In this document: positions 15,369 to 47,272 of the stretch, piece by piece
Numbering within the stretch: the first letter of the stretch is position 1
How the letters are laid out: each line of letters opens with the position of its first letter
Virus record (IMG/VR): IMGVR_UViG_2933953506_000002
Span: 32,001 to 96,000 of that record
Reading direction: 5' to 3' (one strand)
DNA: 64,000 nt
Origin: a virus
Lineage: Duplodnaviria > Caudoviricetes
Notes under the pieces: generated by a model
Seen by the model: only the letters and a program-made list of their open reading frames with translations
The model's database searches: none
What the model was told of the DNA's origin: nothing
Made by a program: the position numbers and the translations under genes

Positions 15369-15650
15369 ACCCCTGCCTGGTGACCACACGACCGGCTCTG
15401 TGGCCATCAGGCAGGCAGCAAGCTCCGCCCGTACGACAACGGCATTCGGCGCGGGCGGAGGACGGCGCTGGGGCCCACGTCCCCCAAAGGCCCCAGCGCC
15501 GGACCAATTCGCCGCAATCCGACAGTCGATCGCTGCCCCTGAGGCCCCACGGCCCCACGGCCCCACCCGCTGTCGGGCCGCCTTCGGCGCCCGGGCGGGA
15601 GCACCAGCAAAGCGACACCTCGAGGACCCCAAGAGACAAGGAAGCTCCGC

Positions 15651-22007: not shown

Positions 22008-22361
22008 GTGACTACTCAGCGAACCTCCTGGGCGCTCGCGCGTGAAGCCGCCGGCCTGTTCCTCACCGCGTTCGGCCTGCTCGGCGTCCTCGTGGCGTTG
22101 GGCGCACTCCACTGGGCCGCCGGACTCTCCGCCGCGATGGCCGGTCTCCTCGCCACGGGCCTGTTCATGCGCCCGAAGCCGACCGCAGCGCCCTGGGCGC
22201 ACCTTGCCCGTGCCGCCGTCTGCATCCTCGGCTACGGCGGTCTCACCGGCTGCGCGTTCGCCCTCTGCACCCCCCTGGGCTGGATCGGCGTCGCCCTGGC
22301 GGTCGTGCTCCTCGGCCTGTGGCTCACCACCCGTGAGCACGAGGACGAGGGGGCCGCCTGA
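22008..22361 (+). CDS. small 4-TM membrane protein upstream of portal
   Basis: duplicated hydrophobic hairpins; stop overlaps the portal ATG (TGATG). Confidence 0.75.
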   Translation: MTTQRTSWALAREAAGLFLTAFGLLGVLVALGALHWAAGLSAAMAGLLATGLFMRPKPTAAPWAHLARAAVCILGYGGLTGCAFALCTPLGWIGVALAVVLLGLWLTTREHEDEGAA

Positions 22362-25133: not shown

Positions 25134-25163
25134 GCGACGCTAACCACCCGCACTGTGCATGGT
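25134..25163 (+). promoter_or_regulatory. phage late-promoter motif copy (leaderless ATG 25171)
   Basis: GCGACGCTAAC, CATGGT at +24, ATG at +37. Confidence 0.7.
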
Positions 25164-25170
25164 CCGCGCC

Positions 25171-28100
25171 ATGCTGAATCGCCCCACTGCACAGGCTGAG
25201 TCGCAGGACCTGAGTCGCGACCTCGAGGTCAAGGTCACGCGCCGGCCGTGGAACCCTGCCCTGCACCCCCGGGACAGCAAGGGCCGCTTCATCGAGACCG
25301 GCGGCGTGGTGAGGACCTGGGGCGGCAAGCTCGCGCGCGTCATCCGTGCGCTCCCGCACGACCGCATCCTCGTCCAGGACCAGACCGGCCCGGACGAGTT
25401 CCGCGGCCGCAGGCACACCACCAGTGCCAAGTGGGTCAGCATGGTCGCGCGCCCCGACGGCAGCGCGCCCACCGACGACGAAGAGAAGGTCGCCGAAGAG
25501 GACGAGCGGCGCACCCAGGACCCGCGCCGCGGCAACGGCGTTGCCCGCGACGACGACGGCGACCCCAACACCCCGAACGAGCCTCACGACCAGGACGACA
25601 AGGGCCGCCCGATCGGCGCCGATGACGGCGACGGCCCGGACGACGATGACGACCAGGACGAGCCCGAGGACGGCGCCCACCCGGTCAACGTCGATGCCCT
25701 GCCGAACCAGCAGCATGCCGCCGGGGCCCGGTACGCCGATACCGCCGCCGTCCGCCGCCACTTCATGCAGGTAGCCGCCCAGCCCGGCACGAGCACGGAC
25801 ATGGCCACCTTCCTGCGCTCGGTGGCACACGACGACGACCTGCGGACCACACCGTCCGGCCGACTCCTCATCCTCCTCGACGACCGGCCCGAACACGCCG
25901 GCCGCTGGAACCTCACCGCAACCGGCTCCGGACAGCGCGTCGACGCCGCCGGCACCTTTGCCACCGCCGAGGACGCCGCCCGATTCGCCGAACACCTCGA
26001 CAAGACCGCCGTCAACGGTCAGCTCACCAAGTTCCAGCAGCCGTTCGACTTCTCCGACCCACAACTGGACCGGGCCGCCCACGACTGGCGCTCCACCAAG
26101 GGCGAGAACATCCAGGGCGCCATCCAGCGGGCCCGCACGGAGTTCGACGGCACCCCGGCACCCGCGGCCGCGCCGAAGGCCACCACGGACAGCCCGACCG
26201 ACGGCAACGGCCAGCGCTTCAGCACGCTCCAGGCCGTTCGCGCCCACTGGCAGCAGCGCCTCGACCAGATCAACGAACTCGGCCCGGACAGCCTCCGAGA
26301 GCAGCGCGCCGCGCGACACCTGGAAGGCCTGATTGGCAACGACCGGATCAAGCTTGTCGGCCGCGGCCAGTTCGTCGTCGGCCAGGACCAGAACGGCGAG
26401 TGGTACCTGGTCGCCACTGGCAACGGCCTGCCGCTCCGCCGTCGGTGGACCTCCCAGCAGGAAGCGCAGGCATTCGCCCAGTCCTTCACCGAGAACGCCC
26501 CCATGGGCGACGACGGAAAGCCACTGGACCTCTCCGACCCCAACGTCCGCATCGCGACGTGGCGCTCGGACGACAACCGGTCGATCAGCGAGGTCATCGA
26601 CGCGGCCGCCGAGAGGTTCCAGCGCGACGACGCCGCGGAGGGCGGCCCGGAGGCGACCCCGGCGCCGGCCGCCGCTCCGGAGACGCCCGCCGCCCCGCAG
26701 GCACCGGAGACCCCGGAGGAGCCTCAGACGCCCGCACTGCCGGGCAACGCCGAGCCCGTCGAGGGCGTCGAGGGGTACCACTACGTCAACGACGGCGGCT
26801 CAATCACGCTGTACGGCCCGGACGGACAGGTCGCCGCGACCAGCGAGCGCGGCTACCCGCCGAAGGCCAAGATCGACGGCGTCACCGTGCCCGTGCCGCA
26901 GTACCCGAAGCAAGGCGCCGCGGTGATGGCCCGGCTGCACCGCGCCGCCCAGAACCCCGACCAGCGCGACCGGATCACCGCGGCGTGGGTGATGAAGCCC
27001 GGCAAGGAAGGCAAGCCCGCCAAGCGGGTCATGGTCTTCCGCGGCACCATCAAGGGCGACGAGCGGGACTACAGCGCCGTCGGCTCCACGCGTGCCATCA
27101 AATGGGCCCCGTCCCTGCGGGGGTACTCGACCCAGTCGAACATGACCGAGGCCACCCGGGACGAGCGGATTACCGAGGTCCTGTCCAAGCTCGCCCGCCA
27201 GGGCCGCAACATCCACGTCACCGACGAGACCGCCGCGGGCACCCCCAACGCTCCGGCCAACGCCGTCGACGAGACCGAGGCTCTGCGCGAGGCCATCGCC
27301 AACGCGGACGACCCCCGCCTGTCGCAGATGAAGCACGAGCGGTGGGGCATGCTCAACAGCACCCGCTCCGAGGCCAAGCGCAAGCGACTCAACTCCGAGA
27401 TCGAAATGATCAACGAGGAGTTGAAGCGCCGTCGGCAGGAGCGGGACGAGGCTGCCGCCCGGGACGCCACATCGCTCAGCGACGACGACATCGCCAACCG
27501 CATCCGCGAGTCGCAGGAAGAACGCGGCACGTACGGCTCCCGCAGGGGCCAGGAAGCCAACGACGTTGAGCGGGCCATCTACAGCGAGCGCCGCCGCCGT
27601 TCGCAGGCCCTCGTCGACGATGACACCGATCTGACCACGGCCGCTGAGGACGACCTGGTAAAGGCCCGCGAGACGATCGCCGAACGGGTCCGCATGCACC
27701 AGGCCGCCGGCGACGACCCCGAGGCCGAGCGCATCATGCGCCAGGCCCTGCAGGCGCGGCACGACGCCGTCGTCGGCGAGCAGCAGCGCCGCCATGCCCA
27801 GCAGATCGCCGACCGGCCGCCGGTCGTCGACCTCACCGACGAGGAACTGTCGCAGGAGTACAACGACTTGCTCCGGCGCGACTTCCGGAAGGCCCCGCCG
27901 GAGGCGCAGCAGGTCCTCGAGGGCCGCATGGAGGACGTCAAGCGGGAGCGCCGCGACCGGGAGAAGCGGGCTATCACCGACCGGGACGCCCCCGAGAACC
28001 TGAGTGATGAGGACCTGAAGGCGGAGTACACCGAGCTTCGCCGAACGCGCTCCTCGTACACCGGGACCGACGACGTCAAGGCGGCCCGCAAGGAACGCAT

Positions 28101-31100
28101 GGCCGTGCTGGAGGCCGAGCAGAACCGCCGCAGCACTACGCCGGAGGTCGAGCAGCTCGTCGCGCGCGTCGACAACCCCGACGACAACGGCATGATCAGC
28201 ATCGGCGGCGGCAGCGATTACGGCTACGTCGACTACCGGGACCAGACACACGGGCACACGACCCGCGAGATCGGATGGACCTGGGGCAAGCACAGTTGGG
28301 GGCACGCAGACACCGCCTACCCCTCCCGCGCCGCAGCTCTGGCAGCGATGGTCCAGGCGTACGACAACGACCCCGACACCCGCGGTGAGCGCACCTGGGG
28401 CCGTAAGCGCCCCGTGTTCGTGCCGAAGATGTTCGTCGAGCTCTACCAGAACGAGCGTCTTCGCGACCGGCTCGCCGATGCCAGCGAGGAGCGGAAGTAC
28501 CTCTACAGCCTGTTCCGGGACCGGTACGGCTGGGACGACGGCGTGAACCCCCTGGTGCCCAGCAACAAAAAGGGCCACCACATCAAGGGCCGGAAGCTGT
28601 GGGTGCCCGAAGGCCTCCTCGCCGAGCTGAACCGGGTGACGGAGGAGCTTTCCCGGGAGATGTCCGTACGGGCCACGGACCGGGACGCGGACAGTTCCGA
28701 CCGGCAGAAGGCCAAGACCCGGCTCGCGTCCATCAACGTGGCTCTGCACGGCATTGAGGCGCTGCGCGAGTCAGTCCGCAAGAATGGCGGGGACGACGAC
28801 CGGAAGGTCATCTCCCGCGAGGAGATCGAGGCACAGCAGGCCGCGCTCCGTGCAGCGCTGGGAGGCGACGATGACGAACATGTTCAGTCCGATGGTCCGG
28901 GATCACTGGCGGACGTACCGGCCCAAGGAGTGGGCGGCGATGACCGATCCGGAGGCGTTCGTGGAGACGAAGGCCAGGGAGATCGAGACTCAGATTCTGA
29001 AGGCCGAGGAGGCGCTGGAGCAGACGGTTCCGGAGCCGACGGAGTACGAGGAGCAGGTCGGCCGGCACAAGCAGATCAGGGCGGACGCAACGGCGATGGT
29101 CCTGGCGGATCTTCTGCCGGAGCCGGAGCCCGGGGCGGAGACGGCGCCGGAGCAGACGCCGATGGAGCAGCACCTGCAGGAGATCAGGGACCTGATGTAC
29201 GACGCGTAGCGCGGTTCCGGCCGGACCCGGCCGACGCGCCCAAGGGCGCCCGCGCGCGTGCGACGGCCAATGTCGAGGCCATCCGCGTCCTCAAGAAGGT
29301 TGAGGCCGAGAACCGGCCGGCCACCGACGAGGAGCGCCGCATCCTCGCCCGCTGGTCCGGCTGGGGCTCGGTTCCGATCCTCTTCGCCAACGAGCCGAAC
29401 GAGAAGGAGCCCCGCTACCAGCAGGGCGGCACCCGGTACGGCAAGTTCGCCAAGGACCACGAGCGGTGGTCCGAGTACAGCGACATTCGCAGCGAGTTGC
29501 AGCGCGTGCTCACGCCTGTGGAGTTCCGGCAGGCATCCCGCGGCGTGCTGTCCATGCACTACACGCCGCAGCCCATCGCTGAGGCGATGTGGGAAGGCCT
29601 TCGGGCATTCGGCTTCGAGCGCGGCGACGTCCTTGAAGCCGGCTCCGGCGCGGGCACGTTCTTCGGCGTCGCTCCGGACGGCGCCCGCCTGACCGGCGTC
29701 GAACTGGACCCGACCACGGCCCGGATCGCTCAGGCGATCTACCCGCACGCCAACGTTCTCAACGAGTCTTTCGCGGAGACCGACGCCCGGCCGGGCACCT
29801 TTGACGCCGCCATCGGCAACGTGCCCTTCGCTCGGGTCCCGTTCGATGACAAGCGGTACCCGGCAGAGAGCCTTCACAACGGCTTCGTCACCAAGGAGAT
29901 CGCCCTCGTCCGGCCCGGCGGTATCACCGCCGTCATCACCTCCCGCCAGACCCTCGACTCCAAGGGCGACAAGGCCCGCCGCCAGATGGCCAAGTACGGC
30001 GACCTGGTCGGCGCCGTCCGCCTGCCCTCCGGCGTCTTCACCGACGCCGGCACCGGGGTCACCACCGACGTCCTCGTGTTCCGCCGCCGCGAGGACGGCA
30101 CCGAGCCGGCCGACACGTCATGGCTGGACGCCCCTGAGCGGGACATCAACGGCACCGCGCACCACATCAACGCCTACTTCGACGAGCACCCCGAGCACAT
30201 CCTCGGCACGCTCACCACGCAGTCCGGCCCGTACGGGCCCGAGGTGACCGTCAAGGGCGACCCGGCCAAGGCCGCCGAGCAGCTTCGCGCCGCGCTCGAC
30301 GACATCGCCACCAAGGCGAAGGCCGACGGCCGCGGCTACGAGCCGCACCCCGACGGCGACAACCGGCCTCCGGTACAGCTCCAGGCGGCCCGGGAGAAGC
30401 ACGCGAACGACTGGACCGGCCGCCTCTACGAGGGCGACGACGGCCAGTTGTACCAGCACGTGAACGGTGCCGAACCGGTCCTGCTGGAGCCCGCCGACGG
30501 CAACACCGCCCAGCTTCGCGCCCTCATGCAGCTCCGCGACGTCGCCGCCGAACTGCGCGAGCTGGACCGGAAGAACGACGAGGAGGAGCGCGCCGAGGCT
30601 CTGCGCGCCCAACTCCGCGACTTGCACGCCGCCTACGTCGCCGAGTACGGCCCCCTGTCCAAGCCGGGCCAGCACCGCACCAAGGGCGGCCGCCCGACGG
30701 CGTGGGGGTACTTCCGGGCCGACCCGGACGCCGCGGCGGTCCTCGCTCTGGAACGGTGGGACGCCAACAAGGGTGAGCCTGTCCTCTCCCGCGTCTTCAC
30801 TGAGCGCGCCGCGGCCCGCCGACAGCCGCTCTCCTCGACCAACGACCCGAAGGCGGCCCTGGCCGCGGTCGTCGCTGCCAAGGGCGAAGTGGACCTCGGC
30901 GAGATCGCCCGGCTCCTCGACGTCACCCCGCAGGAGGCGGTGAAGCGCCTCGGCAACGAGGTCTTCACCGACCCGGAGACCGGCCGCCTCGAACTGGCCA
31001 GCGCCTACCTGTCCGGCGCCGTCCGCGACAAGCTCGACGCCGCCCGCAAGGCCGCCGAGCGCGACCCGGCGTACGCGGTCAACGTCGCCGCGCTGGAGGC

Positions 31101-34100
31101 CGTGCAGCCGCCGGACCGCACCATCGGCCAGTTCACGCCTGAGATGGGCGCCCACTGGACGCCCCCAGAGCTTCTGCAGGGCTTCCTGCGCGAGTACCTG
31201 GGCGACCGCACACTCCGCGTCGCTCATGACGACCGGTACGGCTGGATTCTCAACACCGGCCGCGTGCCCGAGGCCAACAACGTCATGTACGGCGTCCCGG
31301 CCGTCGAGCCCGACCCGGAAAAGGGCATCAAGGGCAACAAGGGCAAGAACGCCGTGGAGATCGCCCGCGCGATCCTCGGCTTCGGCTCGCTGACCGTCTA
31401 CGAGGACGACAAGCGCAAGGAAGTCGACGAGGCGACCTCACGTCTGATCCGGCAGAAGGCCGATCAGATGCGGGCCGAGTTCGCCAAGTACGCCACGGCG
31501 AACGCCGAGCGGCTGAGCGTCCTCACCGACTCGTACAACCGCATCATGAACGGGCACATCGTCCGTTCGTACGAGGGCATGTCGCCCACCCTCGAGGGCT
31601 TCACCCCCGACCGGAACCCGCACGCCTGGCAGCGCTCCGGCGCGGCCCGGATGCAGTTCGAGCGGGGCGTGATCCTCGCCCATGAGGTGGGCCTCGGTAA
31701 GACGTCCACGCTCGTCATGGGTACCCAGGCCCTCAAGGCGTCCGGGCAGATCGAAAAGCCCATGGCCGTGGTGCCGAACCACCTCGCGCGCCAGTGGTAC
31801 AACGAGGCCCGGTTCCTGTACCCGAACGCCGACATCCACCTGATCACCTCGGCGGACCTGGCCGGCGACCGGCGCGGCAGCACGCTGGAGTGGCTGCGCG
31901 CCAACAGGCCGGACCTGGTCATCTTCACTGAAGAGGCGTTCGGCTCGATCAAGATGAGCCCGGAGGCTCAGGACGAGTACGAGTTCCGGGAGCTGGAGGC
32001 GCTGCGCGAGCAGCTTGACCGCCAGTACGAGGACGCCGACAACCCGAACCACCCGTTCATCGTCGCGAAGATCGAGCAGCGCATCGCGACGGTCAGCAAG
32101 AACATCAACAAGAACGCCGCCCCGATGCGGCGACCGGGTGAGACGTACTGGGACGACCTCGGGTTCGACTACTTCGTCGTCGACGAGGCCCACAGGTACA
32201 AGGGCGTCGGCTTCCGCTCCAAGGAGGGTGGCGGCGACCCGGCGTCTATCCGCGGCGTCGACCTGCACCAGAAGACGAGCGACCTGCACCGCCGCCGCCA
32301 GGGCCGAGCCACGATCACGCTCGCCACCGGTACGCCGCTGTCGAACAGCATCAGCGAGCAGTTCACCATGCTGATGTTCGCGGCGCCGTGGGTGCTGGAC
32401 GCCTACAAGGCGGGCGCCCCCGACCTGTGGGCCAACACCTTCGGCCGCAAGACCCTGCGCATCGAGAACGCCCCCGACGGCTCCGGCCTGCGCGTCGTGG
32501 AGCGGTTCTCCGAGTTCCACAACAAGCGCGCCATGAAGACCATGTGGGGCCTGGTCGCGGACACCAAGCGCGGTGACGACGTCGGCATTCCCCGTCCGAA
32601 GCTCAAGGGCGGCAAGCCGAACCTGATCATGGTCGACGCGACGCCCGACCAGAAGAAGCGTCTCAAGGGGCTCGTCGCCCGCGGCCGCGCGATCCACAAC
32701 GGTGAGGTCGACCGCCACCAGGACAACATGCTCGCGGTGTCCAACGAGGGCACCAGCGTGGCCCTCGACCCGCGGCTCATCGACGCCAAGGCCCCGGCCG
32801 GCAACAAGCTCAAGGCCGTCGCAGACCGGCACATCGAGCGCTACCACCAGAACAAGGACCGGCTCTATCCGGTCGCCCTCGACAGCCTCGTCAACCACCC
32901 GGTACCGGGTGCCCTCCAGATGATCTTCCTGAACGAAGGCGTCCCGGGAGGCAAGAACAAGGGCAACTTCGACGCCTACGCCGAACTCAAGCGGCTCATG
33001 GTCGCGGGCGGCATCCCCGCGGACAAGATCGCCTTCGTTCAGGACGCCAAGAAGTCCGGCAAGCCCGAGGACATGACGGAGCTGTTCCGGAAGGCCCGCG
33101 AAGGTGAAATCGCGGTCCTCATCGGCTCCAGTGCCGTCGCGGGTACGGGCATGAACGCCCAGGACCGCATGATCTCCCTCTCGCACGTCGACCTCGACTG
33201 GGGCGCCGCGCAGATGGAGCAGCGCAACGGCCGCATCCTGCGCTACGGCAATCTGAACCCCGAGGTCGAGATCGACATCTACGCGACCAAGGGCTCCATG
33301 GACGGCTGGAAGGCCGGATTCGTCGCAGCCAAGGCCGAGGGCCTGGTCGACATCCAGCGGCCGGAGCCGGAAGACGGCGACTCCAGCGACGTCGTCCAGG
33401 AGATCGACGGCGCCGAGTTCGACTACGAGACGATGGAAGCCGAGATCGGCGGCAACCCCTACATGAGCCAGCTCATGAAGGCGAAGCGCCGTCTCAAGGA
33501 CCTGGAGATCGACCAGCACAACGAGGCCGCCGAGCGTATCCGTCGCGCCGAAGCCCTCGATGCGCTGCGCCAGGAAGCCCAGGCCACCCGCGACGGTATC
33601 CAGCGCCGCGAGCAGGCCCTGCCCAGCATCCAGGAGGCCGACGACCGGTTCCGCATGACCATCGACGGCTCCCCGTACGGCGAGCGCTCCGACGCCGGCA
33701 AGGCCCTGCACCGGCAGATCACCTCCCGCCTCTTGGAGCACAACCGTGAGGGCCTGAGCGACTGGCACATCCTTGGCCAGTTCCGCGGCCTGGACTTCGG
33801 TGTCCGCACCGAGAAGACAGCGGACGGCAAGCTCGTCGCGCACGTCGGCTTCCCCGACCTGCGGCACTCCGACTTCGAGCGGACCGTGGAGGACCTGCAG
33901 AAGAAGGGCGCCGGGTCGGGCATGATCACCCGCCTCGGCAATGCCCTCGACAAGGCGCCCGCGTTGCAGGAGTCGGACCGGGCCAAGGTGCCGGAGCTGG
34001 ACGAGCAGATAGCCCTGCTCCAGTCCGCGCACGCGGCCGCTGACCTCACTCCGCAGATCGACCACGCCCGCAAGCGGTCGAACCTGCTCGAGGAGATCGT

Positions 34101-37100
34101 CGCCCGCGTCACCAACCTGGACGCGAAGCCGGAGATCGACCCCGACGAACTCGACAAGGAGCGGTACAAGAACAAGGACGACCGCGAGAAGATCGCCAAG
34201 GGGCGGCGCGAGGAACGCGAGCCGCTGCAGGCCGCCGTCGACGAGGCCGTCGCGAACCTGCACCGCTGGGACGAGGAGAACCCGGCACCGGAGCAGGACG
34301 ACACGGTTCGCCTCTCTGAGGACGAGGTGCGCGAAGCTCTTGCCCGTCTCCGCCCGGAGCCCAGCACTACCCCGCAGCCGGACGCCCCGGAGACCAGCGA
34401 CCGCAGTTCCGCGGACGCCGACACCGACGTCGACGAGCCGAACACCGACGAGACGGCGACGCCTGACACCACCGGCGCAGGCAGCAGCGACGAGCCGCTG
34501 ACCGACACGCCAGCCGCGGGCGACACCGGGGCCCAGAACAACGGCCAAGACCAGGACGACGTCGTTCGCCTCTCCGAGGACGAGGTGAACAACACCCTCG
34601 CCAGCATCCAGCCGGACGCCGACACGACCGCCACCGACGAGCCGGACGAGCCCCTTCGGTACGCGTGGGACAAGCCCGAGGACTTCGTCACCCTGACCAT
34701 GCCGGCCGCACTCGTCAACTTCCTGAACGTCGACGAGACCGCCGCCATGGAGGACCCCGACACCCGGAAGGCTCTCAAGGAAGCCAAGCCGGGGCGCCGT
34801 GGCACGCTCCAGGTGACCGGCCCGATCGACGTACACCGCGCCCTCCTCCAGTGGGCATGGACGCTCGAGGGTGGAGAGGGGCTGGAGTCCGACCCCAGCG
34901 ATGTCCGGGCCTACAAGGCGTACGCCAAGCGCATCGAGGAGGCCGACGCCGACCTGCAGCGCCGTCGCGCCGAGCGGGAGACCGCGGCCGCCGCTGACTC
35001 CGACGAGAACGACGACGCCCCGGAGACCGACGGAACGAACGACGGCGGCAGCGACGAGCCGCCGGCCGACGCGCCGAGCACGGCTGAGCCGGGCGACGAG
35101 AACGACGACCAGGACCAGCGCACAGCGGAGGACAGCGACACCGTCACCCTGACCCCGGACGAGGTGTCCGACCAGCTCGACTCTGTACGCCCCGAGGGGT
35201 CCAAGGCCCCGTCCTCGATGGACGATGGCGAGATCCGCGACGAGATCGTCGACCTGATGGGCCGGGAGATGGCTGATGAGCTGTCCGGCGCGGACCGTAC
35301 CCGCCTGCAGGTCCTGGAAGCGGAGGAGGCCCGCCGTGCCGGCCGGGCCCCGAAGCAGGAGCCCAAGCCGAAGCGGACGACCGAGGAGCCCGGAGGACTC
35401 TTCGACGTCGACCAGCCCACCACCCAGCAGCCGAGCAGCGCCGCCGACGTCGACAACCCCGAGGACCAGCCCGACGACCTCTTCGGCACGCCGGACATGA
35501 TCGCCGACGCCGAGGGCCGCAGCACCGAGGGCCTGCGCCCGGCGCGCATGCGCAACGCCGCCGACCTGACCCAGGGCGACCGGTACACCGACGCAGACGG
35601 CCGCACGCACACCGTGTCCGAGCCGCCGGTCAAGACGCCTCGCGGCCGGACCCGACTCGTCACCGACGACGGCGAGGAGCGCTTCTACAACGCCGATGCC
35701 CAGGTGCGCCTGCGCTACCCGGACGAGGAGATCCCCGACAACGAGACCGACGAGCGGTCCGCCGACGACGATGCCGACAACGCCCCGGCCGTCGACGAAC
35801 CGGAGACCTCCGAGCCGGACGTCGACGAGCCCGCCGCCGACGAGCCGGAAACTACCGCGGACAGCGACCGCAGCAGCACCAAGGACCGCGTCGACCGCAT
35901 GTCAGGCCTCATCGACCAGGCCACCGACGGGGCGGGCGGTGACGAGCTGCCCGAGGTCAGCGAGATCCGGGACGCCTTGGGCCGGGCCGAGGACTCCGCC
36001 GACCCGGACGCCGAGCTGCGTTCCGCCGCCGACCGGCTCGACGACCTTGCGGAGATGTACGAGCTGGGAGGCCCGGACGGAGAGCACGCCGCAGACCTGT
36101 TCCGGCAGGCCGCCCGTATCGCGAGGGGCGAGGACGATGACGACCGCCGCGGCGACGACAACGACCGCAGCGAGGACGACAACGACGCCCCCGCCGCGAC
36201 GAACCAGGACTCCGAGGAGGACCAGGACGACGACGCGGGACGCTTGCAGCGGGACGGAGACGGCAACGCCGCCGACCCGAACGGCACCCCCGACGGAGGC
36301 GGCGCCGGTGCGCCCGACGCACCCGCCGACGACGAAGGCGACAGCGACAGCCCCGACGATGCCCCGGACAACGCTGACGACGAGCAGAACGAGCCGGACG
36401 CGGAGGACGAAGACGAGCAGGACGACGACCAGGAGCGCCGTCGCCGGCGTCGGCGCCGCCGCAACGGCGGAGGCGGTAACGGTGGCCCCGGCGGGCCTGG
36501 CGGCCCCGGACTGCCGCGCCTGAACCTCCCCGACCTCAAGACCCCGAACGCCAGCGGCGACGGCGGTGAAGGAGACAGCGAGGACGGCGCTGCCGCCCGC
36601 GGCCGCCGCCCGGCCGCACGGCACCGCGACGTGGCGTCCCTGCGGCGCGCTTGGAAGAACGGCGACGGGCTCACCGCCGCCGAGGACACCCCGGAGCGTC
36701 GCGCAGCCCTGGCCCAGGCAGCCGACCGGGACGGCCTGACGCTGTCCCCGGGCAGCGGCCTGGTCACATGGCCCGAACCGCAGGAAGACGGCACCACCCT
36801 GTGGCACTTCGCGCAGGCCCGGAACGGCAACAACCTGCCCGGCTTGTCCCTGGCCACGGACAACCCCGAGGAGGCCCGCGCCCTGGCTGGCCGCTTCGAG
36901 CAGATCACCGGCAGCGACGGTCAGCCCTTCGACTGGCACCGGCCGTGGGGCCCGAGCACCGTCACCCAGTGGCGCGACGGAGAAGGCCGCAACCTGCAGC
37001 GCGCCCTCCACGCCGTCCGCGACGACTTCGAGCAGCAGCGTGCCGCCTCCGCCCAGCCGGAGCCCACGACGGAGCCGGAACGGAGGGCACTGCCGGACGA

Positions 37101-40100
37101 CCTCACCGGCCTGGACGACGACGAGCTGGTCGACGCGTGGAGCAACGACCTCAGCGACGAGGACCAGCAGCGCCTTATGGCGGAGATGGACCGCCGCGAC
37201 GGCTACACCGACCAGCGCGTTCGTGACGTGCTGCCGGACACCCCGCCGGCCGACGCCGAAGAGGCCGAGCGCCGTGCGAAGGCCGTCGACGAGGCCCTCG
37301 GCTTCGGGGGCGTCGACGTCCCGCGCGTGCGCCGCACCCGTGAGGACATCATCCGTGCGGAGTTCGCCGACTTCGACGAGGCCCGCTACCAGGCCGCCAT
37401 CGACGCCACGAACGGCTACTTCTACGCCCGGAAGTACAAGTACGGCAGCGGCATCAACGAACGAGAGCTGTTCTCCGGCGGTGAACTCGCCAAGTTCGGC
37501 CGCTGGGAGGAGTACGCCAGCGAGGAACTGAAGGACTGGTACAAGGCCAACGGCGGCCGCATCACGTACAACCAGTTCCGGCAGACCTACCGGGACAACG
37601 ATCGCCGGGACCGGCAGCAGTTCGAGGAGGAGCAGCGCCGCCAGGCGGAAGTCGGGCAGACCGAGGAGCCCACGACCCCGGAGACCGAGCCGTACGACCC
37701 GGCCACGCCGCGCTTCGCGGACGAGGCGGCCCTTCGGGATCACATCCGCAGCGGGCAGCTCGACGAGGTGCCCGAGGACCAGCGTGGGGACATTCCCTCA
37801 GCCGAGGAACGCGCGGAGATCGCCGATGCCGAGAGCACCCAGCTCTCCGACGGCGGCCGACTGCTCATCTACGGCAACGAGGCCGGTCGCGCTGGCAGCC
37901 GCCGCGGACAGCGGTTCGACGTGGCCCTTCCAGGCAGCATGCAGCCCCTGTTCCGCAACGGCTTCCACAGCGCCGAGGAGGCCCGCAAGTACGCCAGCGT
38001 CCTCGACGGCATCAAGGACACGGACGGCAACGCGTTCCCGTGGGACGCCCCCAACGTCGCCGAGCGCGCCCGCGCGTTCCGCACCGCCGACGGCAACCGC
38101 CTGTTCGACGAGATCACGGAACGCCTGTACGGCTTCAACGAGCTCTACGAGCAGTGGAACAGCGACCGCGGCCAGGCATTGCACCACCGGACGTGGAGCC
38201 AGCAGGAAGCCGACTGGAACACCCGCGAGGAGGAGGCCGGCTACTCGATCCCCGTCGACCTGACGGACATCCGCCCCGGCGACGAGATCAGCTTCCCCCT
38301 GGCCACGAGCCGCGGGCAGAACACGCGGCCGCAGGACGAGTACGTGGGAACCGTGCACGCCACGGTGACCGGCGAGGGAGAGCCCTTCCAGTACCGCTCG
38401 CAGTTCTCCGCCTTCGGGAACCAGCAGCTCTACCGGTTCCCGGCCGAAGGCTCTTGGACCAACCAGTACGGAGAGCACAGCGAGATCGATGAGGCGTTCC
38501 CGAACCTGGGAGTCGTCCGTCGCCGCCCGCGGCCCGACGAGGTGTCCAGCACGGGCGACGGCCGCGACGACCGTTCGTCCCGCGCGGACACCCCGCAGGC
38601 GGAGACGCCGGGCACCGCGACGCCCCCCTCGCGCCGGCAGCCCGCCCCGGACCGCGCTCCTGCGGAGCCGGAGCCCGCCGTGCCCTCGGCGCCGGCCGAC
38701 GAGCCGCAGGGTGAACCCGAGCCCGTGGGCGGTCAGCCCGCACACTGGGCGCGTGTCCGCGACCTGGTGCCGGGCGACATGGTCCGTATGGAGGGCCGCA
38801 CGAGGAACGGCCGCGCCATCACGCGGTCTGGTTACGTCTTCACCGGGCCCGTCGACGTGGAGGTCACTCGCAACGGCCGCACGGAGCGGATGCTGCGCAC
38901 GTACGTCACGGAGAACCCGGACGGCACCGGTAAGAGCGGCAACGTCTTCACGCCGCTGAACGCCACCGCGGCGCGGGCCGAGGCGCCCGACGACGTGGTG
39001 CCCGGGTCTCCGGCCAGCGGCGCTCAGAGCACCGTTCAGGCGGGCAGCCTCCCCGACGTGGTCCCCACGGACCGGAACGGCCGGGGCTTGTTCCCGGGTA
39101 GCACCGTCACCGGTGTTGACGGGCTGCGTACCCGTGAGGGCACCGTCACGGGCGCCACCAACACCACGGTGTCGGTGCGCTGGGACAACGACGACACCGC
39201 CGACGGCCTCTCGCCGAACACCCTCACCGTAACCGGTGGCGACCGCCCCGACGGCTGGACCTCGTCCGGGCAGCGCGTGACCCCGCGGCACATCGTAACC
39301 GACACCGAGGGCGCTCTCCTCGGGCCAGTCGACGAGGTCAACGGCGACCGCGTCACCATCACCACCGCCGAAGGCACCATCACGCGGAGCGCCGGAGACC
39401 TCCGCGTCGCCGGCGAAGTGCGCGACGACGCCCCGGGCACCGACCCCGTCACCGGCATCGACGACCCGGCGGCCGCGGACCTCAAGGAGGACGACGTCGT
39501 GGTCCTGGACCTCGACGGCACGCCGACCACCGTGGCGGTCACCGGTATCAACCGCGAAGGCGACCGCGTCACCATCGACTTCGCCGACACCACCACGGGC
39601 GAGATCGGCCAGATCGACGTGGACGCCTCCCAGGTCATCCCCCGGGCCCAGGGCGCCGACGGCACCCCGCCCGACCTCGGGCCGGACGACGCCCCAGACA
39701 CCCCGGACGACCTAACCGTGCACGAGCCGCCGCACCGCGTCGAACCCGTCACCGGCCCGACCGTCGACCCCGACCTCACGACGGGCGACCGAGACGTCAT
39801 CGGTGACCTCGCCGACGGCCCGGACGACGACCCCGACGCCCAGCAGGCCGCCGTACGCATCACGGCCGACCTGCCCGTCACCCCGGAGCAGGCCGCCGCA
39901 CTCGCCGCGCAACTCCGCGATTCCGCCGACCCCTCGACCCCGGAGGGCCGCGCCGCCCTGCGTGCCGCCAACCACCTTGACCGGGCCATCGGCCGGACCC
40001 CTCCGCCCGAGCTCAACCGGCCGCGGCCGTCGAACGCCGCACAGGTCGCGGAAGACGACACGATCGCCATCCCCGACAACCAGGGCAACGGCGTACGCGT

Positions 40101-42219
40101 CTACCGCGTCCGGGGTGTCGAAGACGGCCCCGGCGGTACGCGCAGCCTCTTCCTGGAAGGCGAGGACGGCCGTACACGCCGCCGCGTCGTCCACGGAGCG
40201 ATGCCGCTGTGGCAGCTCGGTGAGCCCCAGTCGGACGGCGAGAGCGGACCGGACGACACCGCCCTCGTGCCGGGCGCCCCGGCTGCGCCGACCCCGAGCC
40301 TGCCGCCGGCCGGTGCTCCGCGGGACCCCAACCCGTCTCCGCAGTCCGACGCCGACCGCATCGTCGCCGACCACCCCCGCGCCGTAGCTGCGCGGATCAT
40401 CGACGCGGCGATTGCGGGCACCGAACCGCCCGGTGACATCCACGCGCTTCGTGAGCAGATCGCCCAGCGCCTCACCGCCGAGGCCCTGCGCGATGCACGT
40501 CAGGCCGCTCGCCAGGACGCCGTGGCCGCGTTGGATGCCGCGGGCATCACCGGCCGCGACCGGTCCGCAGCGCTGCAAGCCCTCAAGAGGGCGCGGCAGA
40601 AGGCGCACACCGCGACGGTGCGCGCCGCCCTGCGCACCATCAACGACCTGGAGCCGCTGCCCGACGAGAGCGACGAGGACCTCGCCGCGCGAGCCCGCGA
40701 CCTCCTCAGCCTCATTCCCGACCAGATGGGAGGCACCCCCAACGGGCTCGACGACGACGGCGATGCAGACGTCGCCCGCACCGTCGCTGGGCACGTCGAC
40801 GACGCCGTGAACGCGATCATGCAGCAGCTCCAGGCCGCGGGCATGGACCCGGGCGACGCCGACCGCATCGCCCGCCTCCTCACTCAGCAGATGAACGGCT
40901 CCCGACAGGCCACCGCCCGGCAGATCGCCCGTCGAGTTACGGCCGTGTCCCCGCAGGCTGGCCGCCAGCCGGGTCTGCTCGCCCGGATCGTGGCCGCGCT
41001 CGTCCGTCTCGCCAAGCGCTTCGCGGAACTTGTGCGGGCCGGAGCCCGGAAGATCGCAGGGAAGTACCGCAGTGCCCGCGAGCGGCTGCGTCGTCTGCGC
41101 GCCTTCCTCGGCCGCCTCGCCCGTCGCGTGCGGGAGTGGCCGGAGTCCCGGCGCCTGGCTCGCCTGCACCGCGCCCTCGACCTGCCCGGAGCCGACGGCG
41201 AGTCCCTGGCCGCCCGGATCTCCCACTGGGCCGGCCTGATGCCGGAGGCCGGACGCTTCGGTCAGGCTCAGCGCCGTGTCACGTGGTGGAGGCCCACGAC
41301 GTGGGCGCAGCTTGCCGCCGGACGACTCCCTGGCCGAAGCGACCGCACCCAGTGGGCCCCGGACCAGGCCGCGGACGCTGGCCCCGGCCTGACCGCGCTC
41401 CGCCACCTGGCAGCGCTGAGGGCGGCCGGCGGCGACGTCGACCAAGACGTGACCCGCCGTCTGGCCGACACTCTCGGCGACGACTTCGGCGGCGACCCTC
41501 ACGGCACGCTGCAGCGCGCGGACGACTACGTGGCGCTCACCGAACGCCGCCTGGTCAACCTCCAGGCCGCGCGGACGGGCGGCACCCTGCCGGATGACCC
41601 CGACCTCGAGGTCGAGATCACTGCGGCTCGGGCCGAAGCCGCGGCCGCGCGCCGAGAGTGGGCGGACCTGCGGGCTCAGTACGCCGCGGCGGTCCCGGAC
41701 GCGGTCGCGGCGACCCTCGCCGAGATCCGCGACATGGGACCTGCGGGGAACGCCGGCATCGTGTTCGGCCCGGACTCCACGCCGGACGCCGAGCGGGCCG
41801 TACGGGGCGTGCAGCGCATCGTGCCTCAGGCGTGGCTCAACACCCCGGCCACGCGCCGACTGACGGCCGTTGACGGCGACGAGGGCCGCTACGAGCCCGA
41901 CGGACAGCGAATCACCGTCGCCGACCTCGCCGACGACGGGCTGGGCACCGCCGGGCACGCCCTAGCGCAGCACCTTGCCCAACACCTGGGAGACCTGGAC
42001 GCCGCCCAGCGCGCGTTCTGGTTCAACCAGACCCACACCGGCCGACCGGGCGCCCGCCGCATGCGGCGCAGCACCCTCAGCCGCATCCTGCGTCGCCAGC
42101 AGACGCAACCGGACACCGGTGACACCCTCGCCCGGTCCGTTCAGTCGATGTTCAATGGCGACTGGTACCTGGATGACGACCTGCGGGCGTTCCTCCTGGG
42201 CCTGCTCGCCACCCGATGA
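25171..42219 (+). CDS. giant (~5,680 aa) polyvalent virion-associated protein with DarB-like adenine methyltransferase plus SNF2/SF2 helicase core
   Basis: WNPALHPRDSKGRF; MTase VLEAGSGAGTFF, GVELDP, AIGNVPF; helicase AHEVGLGKT, VDEAH, ATGTPLSNS, GTGMNAQ, EQRNGRILR; lies between portal and protease; start refined from promoter spacing. Confidence 0.88.
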   Translation: MLNRPTAQAESQDLSRDLEVKVTRRPWNPALHPRDSKGRFIETGGVVRTWGGKLARVIRALPHDRILVQDQTGPDEFRGRRHTTSAKWVSMVARPDGSAPTDDEEKVAEEDERRTQDPRRGNGVARDDDGDPNTPNEPHDQDDKGRPIGADDGDGPDDDDDQDEPEDGAHPVNVDALPNQQHAAGARYADTAAVRRHFMQVAAQPGTSTDMATFLRSVAHDDDLRTTPSGRLLILLDDRPEHAGRWNLTATGSGQRVDAAGTFATAEDAARFAEHLDKTAVNGQLTKFQQPFDFSDPQLDRAAHDWRSTKGENIQGAIQRARTEFDGTPAPAAAPKATTDSPTDGNGQRFSTLQAVRAHWQQRLDQINELGPDSLREQRAARHLEGLIGNDRIKLVGRGQFVVGQDQNGEWYLVATGNGLPLRRRWTSQQEAQAFAQSFTENAPMGDDGKPLDLSDPNVRIATWRSDDNRSISEVIDAAAERFQRDDAAEGGPEATPAPAAAPETPAAPQAPETPEEPQTPALPGNAEPVEGVEGYHYVNDGGSITLYGPDGQVAATSERGYPPKAKIDGVTVPVPQYPKQGAAVMARLHRAAQNPDQRDRITAAWVMKPGKEGKPAKRVMVFRGTIKGDERDYSAVGSTRAIKWAPSLRGYSTQSNMTEATRDERITEVLSKLARQGRNIHVTDETAAGTPNAPANAVDETEALREAIANADDPRLSQMKHERWGMLNSTRSEAKRKRLNSEIEMINEELKRRRQERDEAAARDATSLSDDDIANRIRESQEERGTYGSRRGQEANDVERAIYSERRRRSQALVDDDTDLTTAAEDDLVKARETIAERVRMHQAAGDDPEAERIMRQALQARHDAVVGEQQRRHAQQIADRPPVVDLTDEELSQEYNDLLRRDFRKAPPEAQQVLEGRMEDVKRERRDREKRAITDRDAPENLSDEDLKAEYTELRRTRSSYTGTDDVKAARKERMAVLEAEQNRRSTTPEVEQLVARVDNPDDNGMISIGGGSDYGYVDYRDQTHGHTTREIGWTWGKHSWGHADTAYPSRAAALAAMVQAYDNDPDTRGERTWGRKRPVFVPKMFVELYQNERLRDRLADASEERKYLYSLFRDRYGWDDGVNPLVPSNKKGHHIKGRKLWVPEGLLAELNRVTEELSREMSVRATDRDADSSDRQKAKTRLASINVALHGIEALRESVRKNGGDDDRKVISREEIEAQQAALRAALGGDDDEHVQSDGPGSLADVPAQGVGGDDRSGGVRGDEGQGDRDSDSEGRGGAGADGSGADGVRGAGRPAQADQGGRNGDGPGGSSAGAGARGGDGAGADADGAAPAGDQGPDVRRVARFRPDPADAPKGARARATANVEAIRVLKKVEAENRPATDEERRILARWSGWGSVPILFANEPNEKEPRYQQGGTRYGKFAKDHERWSEYSDIRSELQRVLTPVEFRQASRGVLSMHYTPQPIAEAMWEGLRAFGFERGDVLEAGSGAGTFFGVAPDGARLTGVELDPTTARIAQAIYPHANVLNESFAETDARPGTFDAAIGNVPFARVPFDDKRYPAESLHNGFVTKEIALVRPGGITAVITSRQTLDSKGDKARRQMAKYGDLVGAVRLPSGVFTDAGTGVTTDVLVFRRREDGTEPADTSWLDAPERDINGTAHHINAYFDEHPEHILGTLTTQSGPYGPEVTVKGDPAKAAEQLRAALDDIATKAKADGRGYEPHPDGDNRPPVQLQAAREKHANDWTGRLYEGDDGQLYQHVNGAEPVLLEPADGNTAQLRALMQLRDVAAELRELDRKNDEEERAEALRAQLRDLHAAYVAEYGPLSKPGQHRTKGGRPTAWGYFRADPDAAAVLALERWDANKGEPVLSRVFTERAAARRQPLSSTNDPKAALAAVVAAKGEVDLGEIARLLDVTPQEAVKRLGNEVFTDPETGRLELASAYLSGAVRDKLDAARKAAERDPAYAVNVAALEAVQPPDRTIGQFTPEMGAHWTPPELLQGFLREYLGDRTLRVAHDDRYGWILNTGRVPEANNVMYGVPAVEPDPEKGIKGNKGKNAVEIARAILGFGSLTVYEDDKRKEVDEATSRLIRQKADQMRAEFAKYATANAERLSVLTDSYNRIMNGHIVRSYEGMSPTLEGFTPDRNPHAWQRSGAARMQFERGVILAHEVGLGKTSTLVMGTQALKASGQIEKPMAVVPNHLARQWYNEARFLYPNADIHLITSADLAGDRRGSTLEWLRANRPDLVIFTEEAFGSIKMSPEAQDEYEFRELEALREQLDRQYEDADNPNHPFIVAKIEQRIATVSKNINKNAAPMRRPGETYWDDLGFDYFVVDEAHRYKGVGFRSKEGGGDPASIRGVDLHQKTSDLHRRRQGRATITLATGTPLSNSISEQFTMLMFAAPWVLDAYKAGAPDLWANTFGRKTLRIENAPDGSGLRVVERFSEFHNKRAMKTMWGLVADTKRGDDVGIPRPKLKGGKPNLIMVDATPDQKKRLKGLVARGRAIHNGEVDRHQDNMLAVSNEGTSVALDPRLIDAKAPAGNKLKAVADRHIERYHQNKDRLYPVALDSLVNHPVPGALQMIFLNEGVPGGKNKGNFDAYAELKRLMVAGGIPADKIAFVQDAKKSGKPEDMTELFRKAREGEIAVLIGSSAVAGTGMNAQDRMISLSHVDLDWGAAQMEQRNGRILRYGNLNPEVEIDIYATKGSMDGWKAGFVAAKAEGLVDIQRPEPEDGDSSDVVQEIDGAEFDYETMEAEIGGNPYMSQLMKAKRRLKDLEIDQHNEAAERIRRAEALDALRQEAQATRDGIQRREQALPSIQEADDRFRMTIDGSPYGERSDAGKALHRQITSRLLEHNREGLSDWHILGQFRGLDFGVRTEKTADGKLVAHVGFPDLRHSDFERTVEDLQKKGAGSGMITRLGNALDKAPALQESDRAKVPELDEQIALLQSAHAAADLTPQIDHARKRSNLLEEIVARVTNLDAKPEIDPDELDKERYKNKDDREKIAKGRREEREPLQAAVDEAVANLHRWDEENPAPEQDDTVRLSEDEVREALARLRPEPSTTPQPDAPETSDRSSADADTDVDEPNTDETATPDTTGAGSSDEPLTDTPAAGDTGAQNNGQDQDDVVRLSEDEVNNTLASIQPDADTTATDEPDEPLRYAWDKPEDFVTLTMPAALVNFLNVDETAAMEDPDTRKALKEAKPGRRGTLQVTGPIDVHRALLQWAWTLEGGEGLESDPSDVRAYKAYAKRIEEADADLQRRRAERETAAAADSDENDDAPETDGTNDGGSDEPPADAPSTAEPGDENDDQDQRTAEDSDTVTLTPDEVSDQLDSVRPEGSKAPSSMDDGEIRDEIVDLMGREMADELSGADRTRLQVLEAEEARRAGRAPKQEPKPKRTTEEPGGLFDVDQPTTQQPSSAADVDNPEDQPDDLFGTPDMIADAEGRSTEGLRPARMRNAADLTQGDRYTDADGRTHTVSEPPVKTPRGRTRLVTDDGEERFYNADAQVRLRYPDEEIPDNETDERSADDDADNAPAVDEPETSEPDVDEPAADEPETTADSDRSSTKDRVDRMSGLIDQATDGAGGDELPEVSEIRDALGRAEDSADPDAELRSAADRLDDLAEMYELGGPDGEHAADLFRQAARIARGEDDDDRRGDDNDRSEDDNDAPAATNQDSEEDQDDDAGRLQRDGDGNAADPNGTPDGGGAGAPDAPADDEGDSDSPDDAPDNADDEQNEPDAEDEDEQDDDQERRRRRRRRRNGGGGNGGPGGPGGPGLPRLNLPDLKTPNASGDGGEGDSEDGAAARGRRPAARHRDVASLRRAWKNGDGLTAAEDTPERRAALAQAADRDGLTLSPGSGLVTWPEPQEDGTTLWHFAQARNGNNLPGLSLATDNPEEARALAGRFEQITGSDGQPFDWHRPWGPSTVTQWRDGEGRNLQRALHAVRDDFEQQRAASAQPEPTTEPERRALPDDLTGLDDDELVDAWSNDLSDEDQQRLMAEMDRRDGYTDQRVRDVLPDTPPADAEEAERRAKAVDEALGFGGVDVPRVRRTREDIIRAEFADFDEARYQAAIDATNGYFYARKYKYGSGINERELFSGGELAKFGRWEEYASEELKDWYKANGGRITYNQFRQTYRDNDRRDRQQFEEEQRRQAEVGQTEEPTTPETEPYDPATPRFADEAALRDHIRSGQLDEVPEDQRGDIPSAEERAEIADAESTQLSDGGRLLIYGNEAGRAGSRRGQRFDVALPGSMQPLFRNGFHSAEEARKYASVLDGIKDTDGNAFPWDAPNVAERARAFRTADGNRLFDEITERLYGFNELYEQWNSDRGQALHHRTWSQQEADWNTREEEAGYSIPVDLTDIRPGDEISFPLATSRGQNTRPQDEYVGTVHATVTGEGEPFQYRSQFSAFGNQQLYRFPAEGSWTNQYGEHSEIDEAFPNLGVVRRRPRPDEVSSTGDGRDDRSSRADTPQAETPGTATPPSRRQPAPDRAPAEPEPAVPSAPADEPQGEPEPVGGQPAHWARVRDLVPGDMVRMEGRTRNGRAITRSGYVFTGPVDVEVTRNGRTERMLRTYVTENPDGTGKSGNVFTPLNATAARAEAPDDVVPGSPASGAQSTVQAGSLPDVVPTDRNGRGLFPGSTVTGVDGLRTREGTVTGATNTTVSVRWDNDDTADGLSPNTLTVTGGDRPDGWTSSGQRVTPRHIVTDTEGALLGPVDEVNGDRVTITTAEGTITRSAGDLRVAGEVRDDAPGTDPVTGIDDPAAADLKEDDVVVLDLDGTPTTVAVTGINREGDRVTIDFADTTTGEIGQIDVDASQVIPRAQGADGTPPDLGPDDAPDTPDDLTVHEPPHRVEPVTGPTVDPDLTTGDRDVIGDLADGPDDDPDAQQAAVRITADLPVTPEQAAALAAQLRDSADPSTPEGRAALRAANHLDRAIGRTPPPELNRPRPSNAAQVAEDDTIAIPDNQGNGVRVYRVRGVEDGPGGTRSLFLEGEDGRTRRRVVHGAMPLWQLGEPQSDGESGPDDTALVPGAPAAPTPSLPPAGAPRDPNPSPQSDADRIVADHPRAVAARIIDAAIAGTEPPGDIHALREQIAQRLTAEALRDARQAARQDAVAALDAAGITGRDRSAALQALKRARQKAHTATVRAALRTINDLEPLPDESDEDLAARARDLLSLIPDQMGGTPNGLDDDGDADVARTVAGHVDDAVNAIMQQLQAAGMDPGDADRIARLLTQQMNGSRQATARQIARRVTAVSPQAGRQPGLLARIVAALVRLAKRFAELVRAGARKIAGKYRSARERLRRLRAFLGRLARRVREWPESRRLARLHRALDLPGADGESLAARISHWAGLMPEAGRFGQAQRRVTWWRPTTWAQLAAGRLPGRSDRTQWAPDQAADAGPGLTALRHLAALRAAGGDVDQDVTRRLADTLGDDFGGDPHGTLQRADDYVALTERRLVNLQAARTGGTLPDDPDLEVEITAARAEAAAARREWADLRAQYAAAVPDAVAATLAEIRDMGPAGNAGIVFGPDSTPDAERAVRGVQRIVPQAWLNTPATRRLTAVDGDEGRYEPDGQRITVADLADDGLGTAGHALAQHLAQHLGDLDAAQRAFWFNQTHTGRPGARRMRRSTLSRILRRQQTQPDTGDTLARSVQSMFNGDWYLDDDLRAFLLGLLATR
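28871..29209 (+). CDS. TnpV-like small protein (112 aa) nested in an alternative frame inside the giant ORF
   Basis: GGAGG at 28861, ATG 28871; high-GC3 codons in this frame while the host frame becomes A/T-ending and G/D/R low-complexity; HWRTYRP..W..M.DP..F...EYEEQVGR..Q.R..A. Confidence 0.75.
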   Translation: MTNMFSPMVRDHWRTYRPKEWAAMTDPEAFVETKAREIETQILKAEEALEQTVPEPTEYEEQVGRHKQIRADATAMVLADLLPEPEPGAETAPEQTPMEQHLQEIRDLMYDA

Positions 42220-46996: not shown

Positions 46997-47272
46997 GTGA
47001 TCGAGATACAACCCCTTGGCCTCGCGGCAGAGTTGGACGCGCTTGCCAACGCCCCCGCCACCCACCGGGGCCCTCAGTGCAGCATCGGGGCGTTCCTGGC
47101 CGCCGCAGATGAGAAGGCAACGGCATCCCTGCGCGCGGCCCTGGACTCTGACCGTGTCACGGCGAAGTCCATCGCCGACACCCTCAGCCGGTACGGCGAC
47201 GCGGTCACCGCGTACACCGTCGCCCGGCACCGGCGCCGCGGGCAGTCCAACGGATGCCGGTGCGAGCGATGA
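46997..47272 (+). CDS. small Zn-binding phage protein
   Basis: GGAGG plus GTG; GPQCSIG...RHRR...CRC; ATGA-coupled to the next gene. Confidence 0.7.
   Translation: MIEIQPLGLAAELDALANAPATHRGPQCSIGAFLAAADEKATASLRAALDSDRVTAKSIADTLSRYGDAVTAYTVARHRRRGQSNGCRCER

Follow-up and report, generated by a model that had tools for sequence, protein, structure and literature searches.

Head module and a repeated 20-residue motif

The window, i.e. the whole stretch of 64,000 nucleotides analysed here, corresponds to bases 32001-96000 of a 115,774-bp single-contig virus record (G+C 63-75%), the nearest named relative of which is Streptomyces phage Gilgamesh (protease 67.6% identity over the full length; identical gene order). 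Its head module is encoded in the order of portal-MuF, giant open reading frame (ORF), small acidic ORF, S78-NUDIX prohead protease and HK97-family capsid protein, and all features of this module described below lie on the + strand. A 20-residue motif was found in three internal copies in the giant protein and once at the C-terminus of the prohead protease, and the initial annotation had taken it for a capsid-targeting tag by which cargo is loaded into the prohead.

The portal protein with its MuF-like C-terminal part (22337-24820; PF04860, E 5e-42, and a PF04233 match under its cut-off) is encoded directly upstream of the giant gene, and its homologue in Gilgamesh carries the annotation 'portal and MuF-like fusion protein'. 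The giant gene (25159-42219), placed between the portal-MuF and protease genes, is an uninterrupted ORF of 5686 amino acids (aa) with a G+C content of 0.90 at third codon positions (GC3), and its modules were compared with those of Gilgamesh gp48 and four distant giants. A DarB-like module (28732-34107; aa ~1192-2983) consisting of an N6-methyltransferase and an SNF2-type helicase was recognised by phrog_10089 ('DarB-like antirestriction', E 8.7e-270, PHROGs) and by the Pfam families N6_Mtase, SNF2-rel_dom, ResIII and Helicase_C. The presence of several unrelated domains, including the N6-methylase and the SNF2 helicase, among head genes identifies the giant as a polyvalent protein; no Pfam or PHROGs match was obtained in its C-terminal half (last ~2,900 residues).

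The prohead protease gene (43471-45399, 642 aa) encodes an S78 domain, a NUDIX domain, a conserved C-terminal domain, an acidic linker and a tail (PF04586, PF00293, PHROGs). A gene caller places the start 27 codons further in, which gives 615 aa, the length of database protein P0125. It was assigned to the HK97-type S78 proteases by a PF04586 match above the cut-off (E 1e-10), with a portal gene upstream and a PF05065 capsid gene downstream. The latter (45624-46913) encodes an HK97-fold major capsid protein with an N-terminal delta (scaffold) domain, recognised by PF05065 and by its sequence and identical to the 429-aa database protein P0005; the likely start is an ATG located 20 codons inside the longest ORF.

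Copy A1 of the motif (34297-34356; aa 3047-3066) directly follows a conserved helical domain ending in W-D-E-E-N-P-A-P-E-Q, copy A2 (34555-34614; aa 3133-3152) is a tandem duplicate of A, and copy B (35134-35193; aa 3326-3345) is always followed by a conserved E-G-S-K-A-P-S-S-M segment. All three were detected by profile and by BLOSUM62 score and are predicted to be helical by AlphaFold2, and their positions agree exactly with the three copies claimed by the initial annotation. Its claim that they match the extreme C-terminus of the prohead protease held as well, since a related 20-mer (45337-45396; aa 623-642; profile) ends that protein with the stop codon next to it. By ungapped BLOSUM62 comparison with the last 20 residues of the protease, A1, A2 and B scored 58, 47 and 34, whereas 1000 block-shuffled versions of the giant (blocks of 60 residues) had a mean best score of 24.0 (standard deviation, sd, 3.8; maximum 42) and a third-best score that never exceeded 26. 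A weaker copy had also been proposed at ~28795 (28795-28848; residue 1213). It was rejected as chance-level, because its score of 20 is below the mean of the shuffled best scores, and the profile gave no match there.

When the whole genome (1464 six-frame ORF pieces) was scanned with a profile built from the four copies, only those four were returned (30.7-37.7 bits), the next value being 4.3 bits. In five complete Streptomyces assemblies (~44 Mb), the top 14 matches of the profile (18.4-44 bits) were all in the frames of giants (9) or proteases (5), and the best match outside these frames was 16.9 bits; in both scans, the motif was thus shared by the protease and the giant only. An exhaustive search of 1.84 billion representative proteins using profile A4 (copy-A1 segment) gave 7 matches at E <=0.001, comprising 5 giant homologues, P0135, which is without the motif stretch, and P0139 (76 aa), an unrelated tandem-repeat protein. 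A word-indexed search, which covers proteins of <=3210 aa and leaves giants beyond its range, returned 6 proteases at near length and no longer protein sharing the tail. P0139 consists of three tandem L-T-E-E-E-V-K-A-Q-L-E-x-L-x-P units resembling the motif helix, and its cluster mate P0140 (116 aa) is annotated at the source as a hypothetical protein of a Candidatus Kaiserbacteria metagenome-assembled genome; the likeness is probably a convergence of acidic amphipathic helices.

The acidic linkers in which the initial annotation had placed the copies were confirmed, flanking linkers being composed of 26-47% Asp + Glu and 0-13% hydrophobic residues. The P/T-rich linker from A1 to A2 (34357-34554) has 26% Asp + Glu and 3% hydrophobic residues, that ahead of copy B (34969-35133) has 38% and 0%, and that ahead of the protease tail (45247-45336; aa 593-622) has 47% Asp + Glu and varies in length and sequence among relatives. 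All three are predicted to be disordered, with a predicted local distance difference test (pLDDT) value below 50. An AlphaFold2 model of giant residues 2960-3460 (15-row alignment, mean pLDDT 64) placed helices on the second half of each copy (model residues 95-105 for A1, 181-189 for A2 and 374-383 for B), with pLDDT below 50 over model residues 106-176, 192-208 and 324-369, and A2 formed an island of pLDDT 62 amid surroundings of 33-47. The model of the protease was poor (mean pLDDT 44.8), and only its C-terminal domain, disordered linker and tail helix were used; pLDDT was below 50 over residues 563-627, and a terminal helix was predicted at residues 630-641.

In these models, the element looks like a short linear motif, in which an extended T-V-(R/T/H)-L is followed by an amphipathic helix of 10-12 residues. 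The pattern is (D/E)(D/E)-V-x-x-x-L-x-x-(I/L/M/V), with V11, L15 and position 18 on one face of the helix. The motif is always preceded by an acidic, disordered linker, and its display on a flexible linker outside folded domains is a property of cargo-loading peptides.

Conservation of the motif in related genomes

The sample consisted of 11 viral contigs and 13 Streptomyces genome loci, together with further pieces of ten of those records. Loci L013-L016 and L030-L034 are such extra pieces of genomes already counted, and L010, L012 and L029 (NUDIX part only) and L028 (ending after protease residue 178) were left out of the protease count. The initial annotation had named absence of the motif from homologues as evidence that would speak against its proposal. 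The proposal withstood this check: the motif was found at the C-terminus of 22/22 proteases (window, Gilgamesh, 9 viral loci and 11 genomic loci) and, in at least one copy at >=10 bits, in 19/22 of the giants seen across the relevant region. The tail motif forms the very end of the protein in 21/22 proteases. In L023 (11840-11980), P0126 and P0127, the protease stop codon has been lost in one sublineage and translation reads through for 17 residues past the tail, which thereby becomes naturally 'internal'; a free C-terminus right after the motif is therefore not required.

Three copies are present in the giants of 6 genomes (window, L002, L004, L005, L017 and L022), two copies in 11 genomes and one copy in 2 genomes, these numbers being minima, as many of the giant genes extend beyond the loci sampled; in L024, a second copy scored 8.1 bits. 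The copies lie at module boundaries of the giant, in 1-3 repeats. Those of type A come after a conserved helical domain ending in W-(D/E)-x-E-N-P-x-P-E and those of type B before the conserved E-G-S-K-A-P-S-S-M segment. The A1/A2 tandem duplication is missing from L003, L023 and L013, each of which has a single A copy. In G009 and G010, a B-type copy is located ~1,050 residues upstream of an A-like copy and in a different context, and from this order and context it appears that modules were reshuffled together with their copies.

Among the six three-copy genomes, the motif copies are gap-free with mean pairwise identities of 0.86 (A1), 0.82 (A2) and 0.93 (B), and the neighbouring folded domains have identities of 0.88-0.91, whereas the three linkers have identities of 0.45 (A1 to A2), 0.55 and 0.22 (ahead of B) with 23/80, 6/18 and 91/141 gapped columns, respectively. 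The motif copies are islands of conservation inside fast-diverging acidic linkers. None of 40 internal copies departs from the Val of D-E-V or the Leu after it, and conservation is >=90% at the first Val and Leu and at the closing Pro; in a family alignment of 25 proteases, E632, V633, K634 and L637 are invariant. The four DNA copies of the window differ at synonymous sites, and they are therefore not products of recent gene conversion.

These data bear on the explanation that the copies have no shared function and either were left behind when the 3' end of the protease gene recombined with the giant gene or cap helices in linkers in a generic way, serving local folding. Copy number does shift by duplication and deletion, the place of A1 and A2 being taken in L003 and L023 by one A copy of hybrid appearance, and P0139 with its three similar acidic helices demonstrates that such sequences arise elsewhere. 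The amino acid sequence is, however, conserved despite the synonymous divergence, the internal copies show little or no variation at the hydrophobic positions and the terminal Pro, and the tail is kept in proteases down to 43-46% identity to that of the window while the adjacent linkers randomise. An origin without function is accordingly considered very improbable.

The giant as a whole retains its N-terminal ~165 aa and C-terminal ~1200 aa across the family and is variable in the middle. It holds several copies of a ~100-aa domain without known family (aa ~170-580 and ~3800-4200), residues 344-576 and 3819-3960 both aligning to residues ~169-432 of Gilgamesh gp48, and near aa 3700 a run of nine Arg residues is followed by a Gly/Pro-rich stretch. 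In the more distant Gordonia phage ChisanaKitsune (L037) and Brevibacterium phage Cantare (L036), separate genes occupy the portal-to-protease interval where the family of the window has one giant gene. They encode an RNA ligase, an ADP-ribosyltransferase, a 969-aa HNH protein and a 1040-aa protein of unknown function, and what is one fused set of putative cargoes in one lineage may be divided among genes in the other.

Homologues of the capsid protein (60-96% identity) were found in >100 database clusters, mostly from Streptomyces assemblies, on contigs that are very often ~120-136 kb long, some records being labelled as plasmids; in IMG/VR, 4/5 related records are classed as proviruses. The records of capsid homologues suggest a widespread group of large temperate or plasmid-like phages. 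Other genes noted around the head module are an exonuclease/metallophosphoesterase-like gene (phrog_284, E 3e-56; 47254-48516), directly after the capsid gene within the module, and a TauD-family dioxygenase gene (15543-16553) upstream.

Protease domains, predicted cleavage sites and the tail lysine

The middle domain of the protease is NUDIX in the subclade of the window and a 2H phosphoesterase in others (PF13563, E 4.5e-14 in L008), and the S78 domain, the C-terminal domain, the acidic linker and the tail are constant despite this swap. Persistence of the tail through the exchange of NUDIX for 2H fits a role that is tied to the head rather than to the enzyme. The protease is a cargo fusion in its own right (related genes in L006, L008, L009, L011 and L024-L027), and an extra inserted domain of ~85 aa is present in the proteases of L004, L005, L009 and L026.

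The swappable effector domain could also be accommodated if the motif bound a partner other than the shell, either portal-MuF or a host factor met after ejection, and so, within the infected cell, localised both the DarB-like module and the enzyme (NUDIX or 2H) linked to the protease. The portal-MuF gene adjoins the giant gene upstream, and the candidate cleavage sites described below could free a fragment composed of effector and tail. The tail is, however, carried by the one protein with a known job inside the prohead, nothing in the analysis singles out a particular partner, and we know of no host-binding motif that resembles the 20-mer. Such a partner is therefore regarded as quite unlikely.

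Tail and internal copies differ at one position. The residue after the invariant Val is Lys in 25/25 protease tails and in 0/40 internal copies, which have Ser (17), Arg (14), Asn (4), Ala (3), Glu (1) or Thr (1) instead. The Lys of the tail completes E-V-K-(A/S/D). The related pattern E-x-K-S-(A/L/V) occurs five times in the protease and capsid protein of the window, namely at protease residues 373 and 392 (44587-44658) and 632 (45364-45378) and at capsid residues 54 (45783-45797) and 92 (45897-45914), and has zero occurrences in the 5,686-residue giant. The occurrences at protease residues 373 and 392 are two conserved E-x-K-S-A repeats leading from the cargo domain to the C-terminal domain, in which K375 is invariant and K394 and S395 are nearly invariant among the 25 proteases; from their pattern, they are candidate self-cleavage sites. 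The occurrence at capsid residue 92 is the predicted boundary between the delta domain and the mature protein, E-E-K↓S-L-G (arrows indicate known or predicted cuts), by likeness to K103↓S104 of HK97: it lines up with N-K↓S-L-G-S of HK97 gp5, in which that Ser is residue 104, and its E92 and K94 are invariant in 88 capsid proteins.

Across the family, E-x-K-S-(A/L/V) was observed 59 times against 0.7 expected in the 25 related proteases, 108 times against 3.4 expected in the 88 capsid proteins and 2 times against 1.5 expected in 23 giant pieces, such counts not being independent since the sequences are related. The shorter E-x-K-(S/A) is depleted in the same giant pieces (4 observed and 20.5, sd 4.6, expected from block shuffles) whereas D-x-K-(S/A) is not (22 and 21.3); in the giant of the window alone, E-x-K-(S/A) has 0 occurrences against 2.15 expected (P ~0.11). 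These patterns suggest E-x-K↓S as a candidate cleavage motif of the S78 protease that the cargo avoids. If it is one, the protease could sever its own tether, and the copies in the cargo would be built to resist cutting.

The same sites raise the explanation that the 20-mer is an element recognised by the protease, its copies being exosites or cleavage markers for cutting the giant into modules and the tail a self-substrate or an auto-inhibitory pseudo-substrate. Iyer et al. suggest that polyvalent proteins are processed proteolytically (PMC5512222), the copies stand at module boundaries within linkers, and the tail of the window overlaps the E-x-K-S pattern, which has two further occurrences in the protease and one at the site of maturation predicted for the capsid. 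Opposed to it are the capsid protein, the one near-certain substrate, in which the profile scan of the whole genome found no match to the 20-mer; the would-be cleavage Lys, confined to the tails; and the depletion of E-x-K-(S/A), but not of D-x-K-(S/A), in giants, where the counts are not independent. The version in which the 20-mer is itself the cleavage site is weakened by the first two of these points, and a recognition element of either kind is considered unlikely.

Proposed docking in the procapsid and comparison with known systems

Residence of the protease in proheads follows from its membership of the S78 family, and the giant is a probable packaged cargo from the position of its gene in the head module and its DarB-like content. 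We infer from this that the motif binds the procapsid and that the giant is packaged. In the reading favoured here, all copies would dock at one common site inside the assembling procapsid and co-load the protease and the giant; we put the chance of this at about even. The site would belong either to the capsid protein of HK97 fold, on its inner face, or to the delta-domain scaffold; bound there through the shared motif, protease and giant would enter the head together during assembly, and the giant would later leave it along with the DNA. The Lys of the protease tail would provide E-V-K↓(S/A/D), like the predicted capsid site E-E-K↓S-L-G, at which the protease could cut its own tether, and the copies of the giant, being without Lys, would stay intact. 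The initial annotation had spoken of a C-terminal peptide of protease and scaffold: the protease part of this label is correct, and the scaffold part is loose, as the role of scaffold most likely falls to the delta domain at the N-terminus of the capsid protein. The fuller proposal, of a portable encapsidation tag that works also at internal positions, tethers the protease and a 620-kDa injected anti-restriction polyprotein to the wall of the procapsid or to the delta-domain scaffold, and sets release (with Lys) or retention (without Lys) by a one-residue switch, is put forward as a tentative and rather doubtful one.

Several observations weigh against docking by the motif. The presence of the giant in the virion is deduced from gene position and the DarB-like module, and a packaging determinant could reside in its conserved terminal regions instead: the N-terminal ~165 aa are common to all four distant giants compared (L013-L016), and the C-terminal ~1200 aa to L013, L015 and L016, L014 having only the last ~640 aa. 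The copy in Gilgamesh gp48, an orthologue of copy B, comprises the first half only. No consistent covariation between the tail and the internal copies was found. At motif position 6, Met is present in the tails of L018 and L020 and Leu in the A copies of the same genomes (L030 and L031), and L024 has Met in both; this line was dropped. In Cantare and ChisanaKitsune, which have related proteases, no portal-to-capsid gene resembles the last 20 residues of the protease, the best scores of 12 and 19 being below the null means of 20.9 and 20.1, respectively, and the shared tail was accordingly not extended to these two phages. The motif profile gave no match to the tail of the HK97 protease gp4 (best of 500 shuffles, 2.0 bits), and homology to that targeting tail was not retained, the likeness of the terminal helices being one by eye only.

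Finally, the giants of L014, L015 and L016 have no copy at >=10 bits and the protease tails are kept, so that the internal copies are not the sole route of packaging. These three genomes bear also on a pairing of like with like, in which the tail would bind the copies of the giant through strand and helix, one protein riding in on the other with no receptor on the shell. All copies share the pattern of a strand plus an amphipathic helix with invariant hydrophobic positions, and up to three copies could recruit several proteases. Since the tail is retained where the giant offers no copy, and since the strongly acidic nature of all copies disfavours self-association, pairing is thought improbable.

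Docking would bear on the entry of giant polyvalent anti-defence proteins into phage heads, for which this family offers a defined, conserved 20-residue candidate that is shared by the cargo and the one protein already expected inside the prohead. If the fuller proposal is true, the motif would be the first loading signal of polyvalent proteins to be defined by its sequence, and its repeats would naturally tether at several points a cargo that is longer than the head is wide. If docking holds, the peptide would offer an easy means of bringing foreign proteins into actinophage capsids, and the difference between Lys and non-Lys copies would hint at how one tethered protein is released by the phage while another is retained. 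The family is common, with its >100 clusters of capsid homologues, many of them on Streptomyces contigs of ~125-135 kb.

In HK97, according to work of 2013 by Duda, Oh and Hendrix, the C-terminal part of the protease reportedly targets fusions into proheads. HK97 gp4 resembles the window in being an S78-family protease that acts with an HK97-fold capsid protein bearing an N-terminal delta scaffold domain, and its tail, like that of the window, ends in an amphipathic helix and has a K-S-hydrophobic triplet like the known K103↓S104 site. The two tails are without significant match, and the protease of the window differs in carrying an enzyme domain and in having its tail repeated in a giant cargo; to our knowledge, no other protein of HK97 copies the protease tail. 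In herpesviruses (UL26/UL26.5) and lambda (C/Nu3), protease and scaffold share a C-terminal capsid-binding tail by means of nested genes. There, two proteins that have to reach the procapsid bear the same peptide and are released by a protease site near the tail, which resembles what is proposed for the window, but the nested systems use one gene with in-frame translation, whereas the copies of the window are diverged, belong to separate genes and are internal in 3/4 cases. In encapsulins, a short conserved peptide on a flexible linker is carried by unrelated cargoes and binds the inside of an HK97-fold shell. The sequences differ from those of the window, encapsulins have neither protease nor DNA, and the binding site in the window is hypothetical.

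Closer in function are the capsid targeting sequence of T4 and the DarB signal of P1, short peptides that load internal or ejected anti-restriction proteins into proheads as is proposed for the window; DarB is the nearest functional relative of the central module of the giant (phrog_10089). P1 DarB is loaded into capsids by an N-terminal targeting peptide of 30 residues, and in the part of that paper considered the authors state that no consensus targeting signal was found among the Dar proteins (PMC9024508). The signals of T4 and P1 are N-terminal and single, whereas the candidate of the window is multi-copy, shared with the protease, and either internal (aa 3047-3345 of 5686) or C-terminal, and so unlike a T4-type N-terminal propeptide. 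For phage polyvalent proteins, packaging and injection have been predicted (Iyer, Burroughs, Anand, de Souza and Aravind 2017, PMC5512222), and these proteins resemble the giant in being multi-domain, in having a DarB-type methylase-helicase pair and in being encoded among head genes. No encapsidation signal for them was found in the literature searched, none being named in the portion of PMC5512222 considered. Supplements aside, that literature nowhere describes a polyvalent protein with repeats of a protease-tail peptide, and it contains no article on phage Gilgamesh. Shared capsid-binding tails are already known from herpesviruses, lambda, T4 and encapsulins, and the motif of the window is a variant of this known principle; what is new is its multi-copy, internal version in a giant polyvalent protein, matching the tail of an S78 protease, together with the Lys that is specific to that tail.

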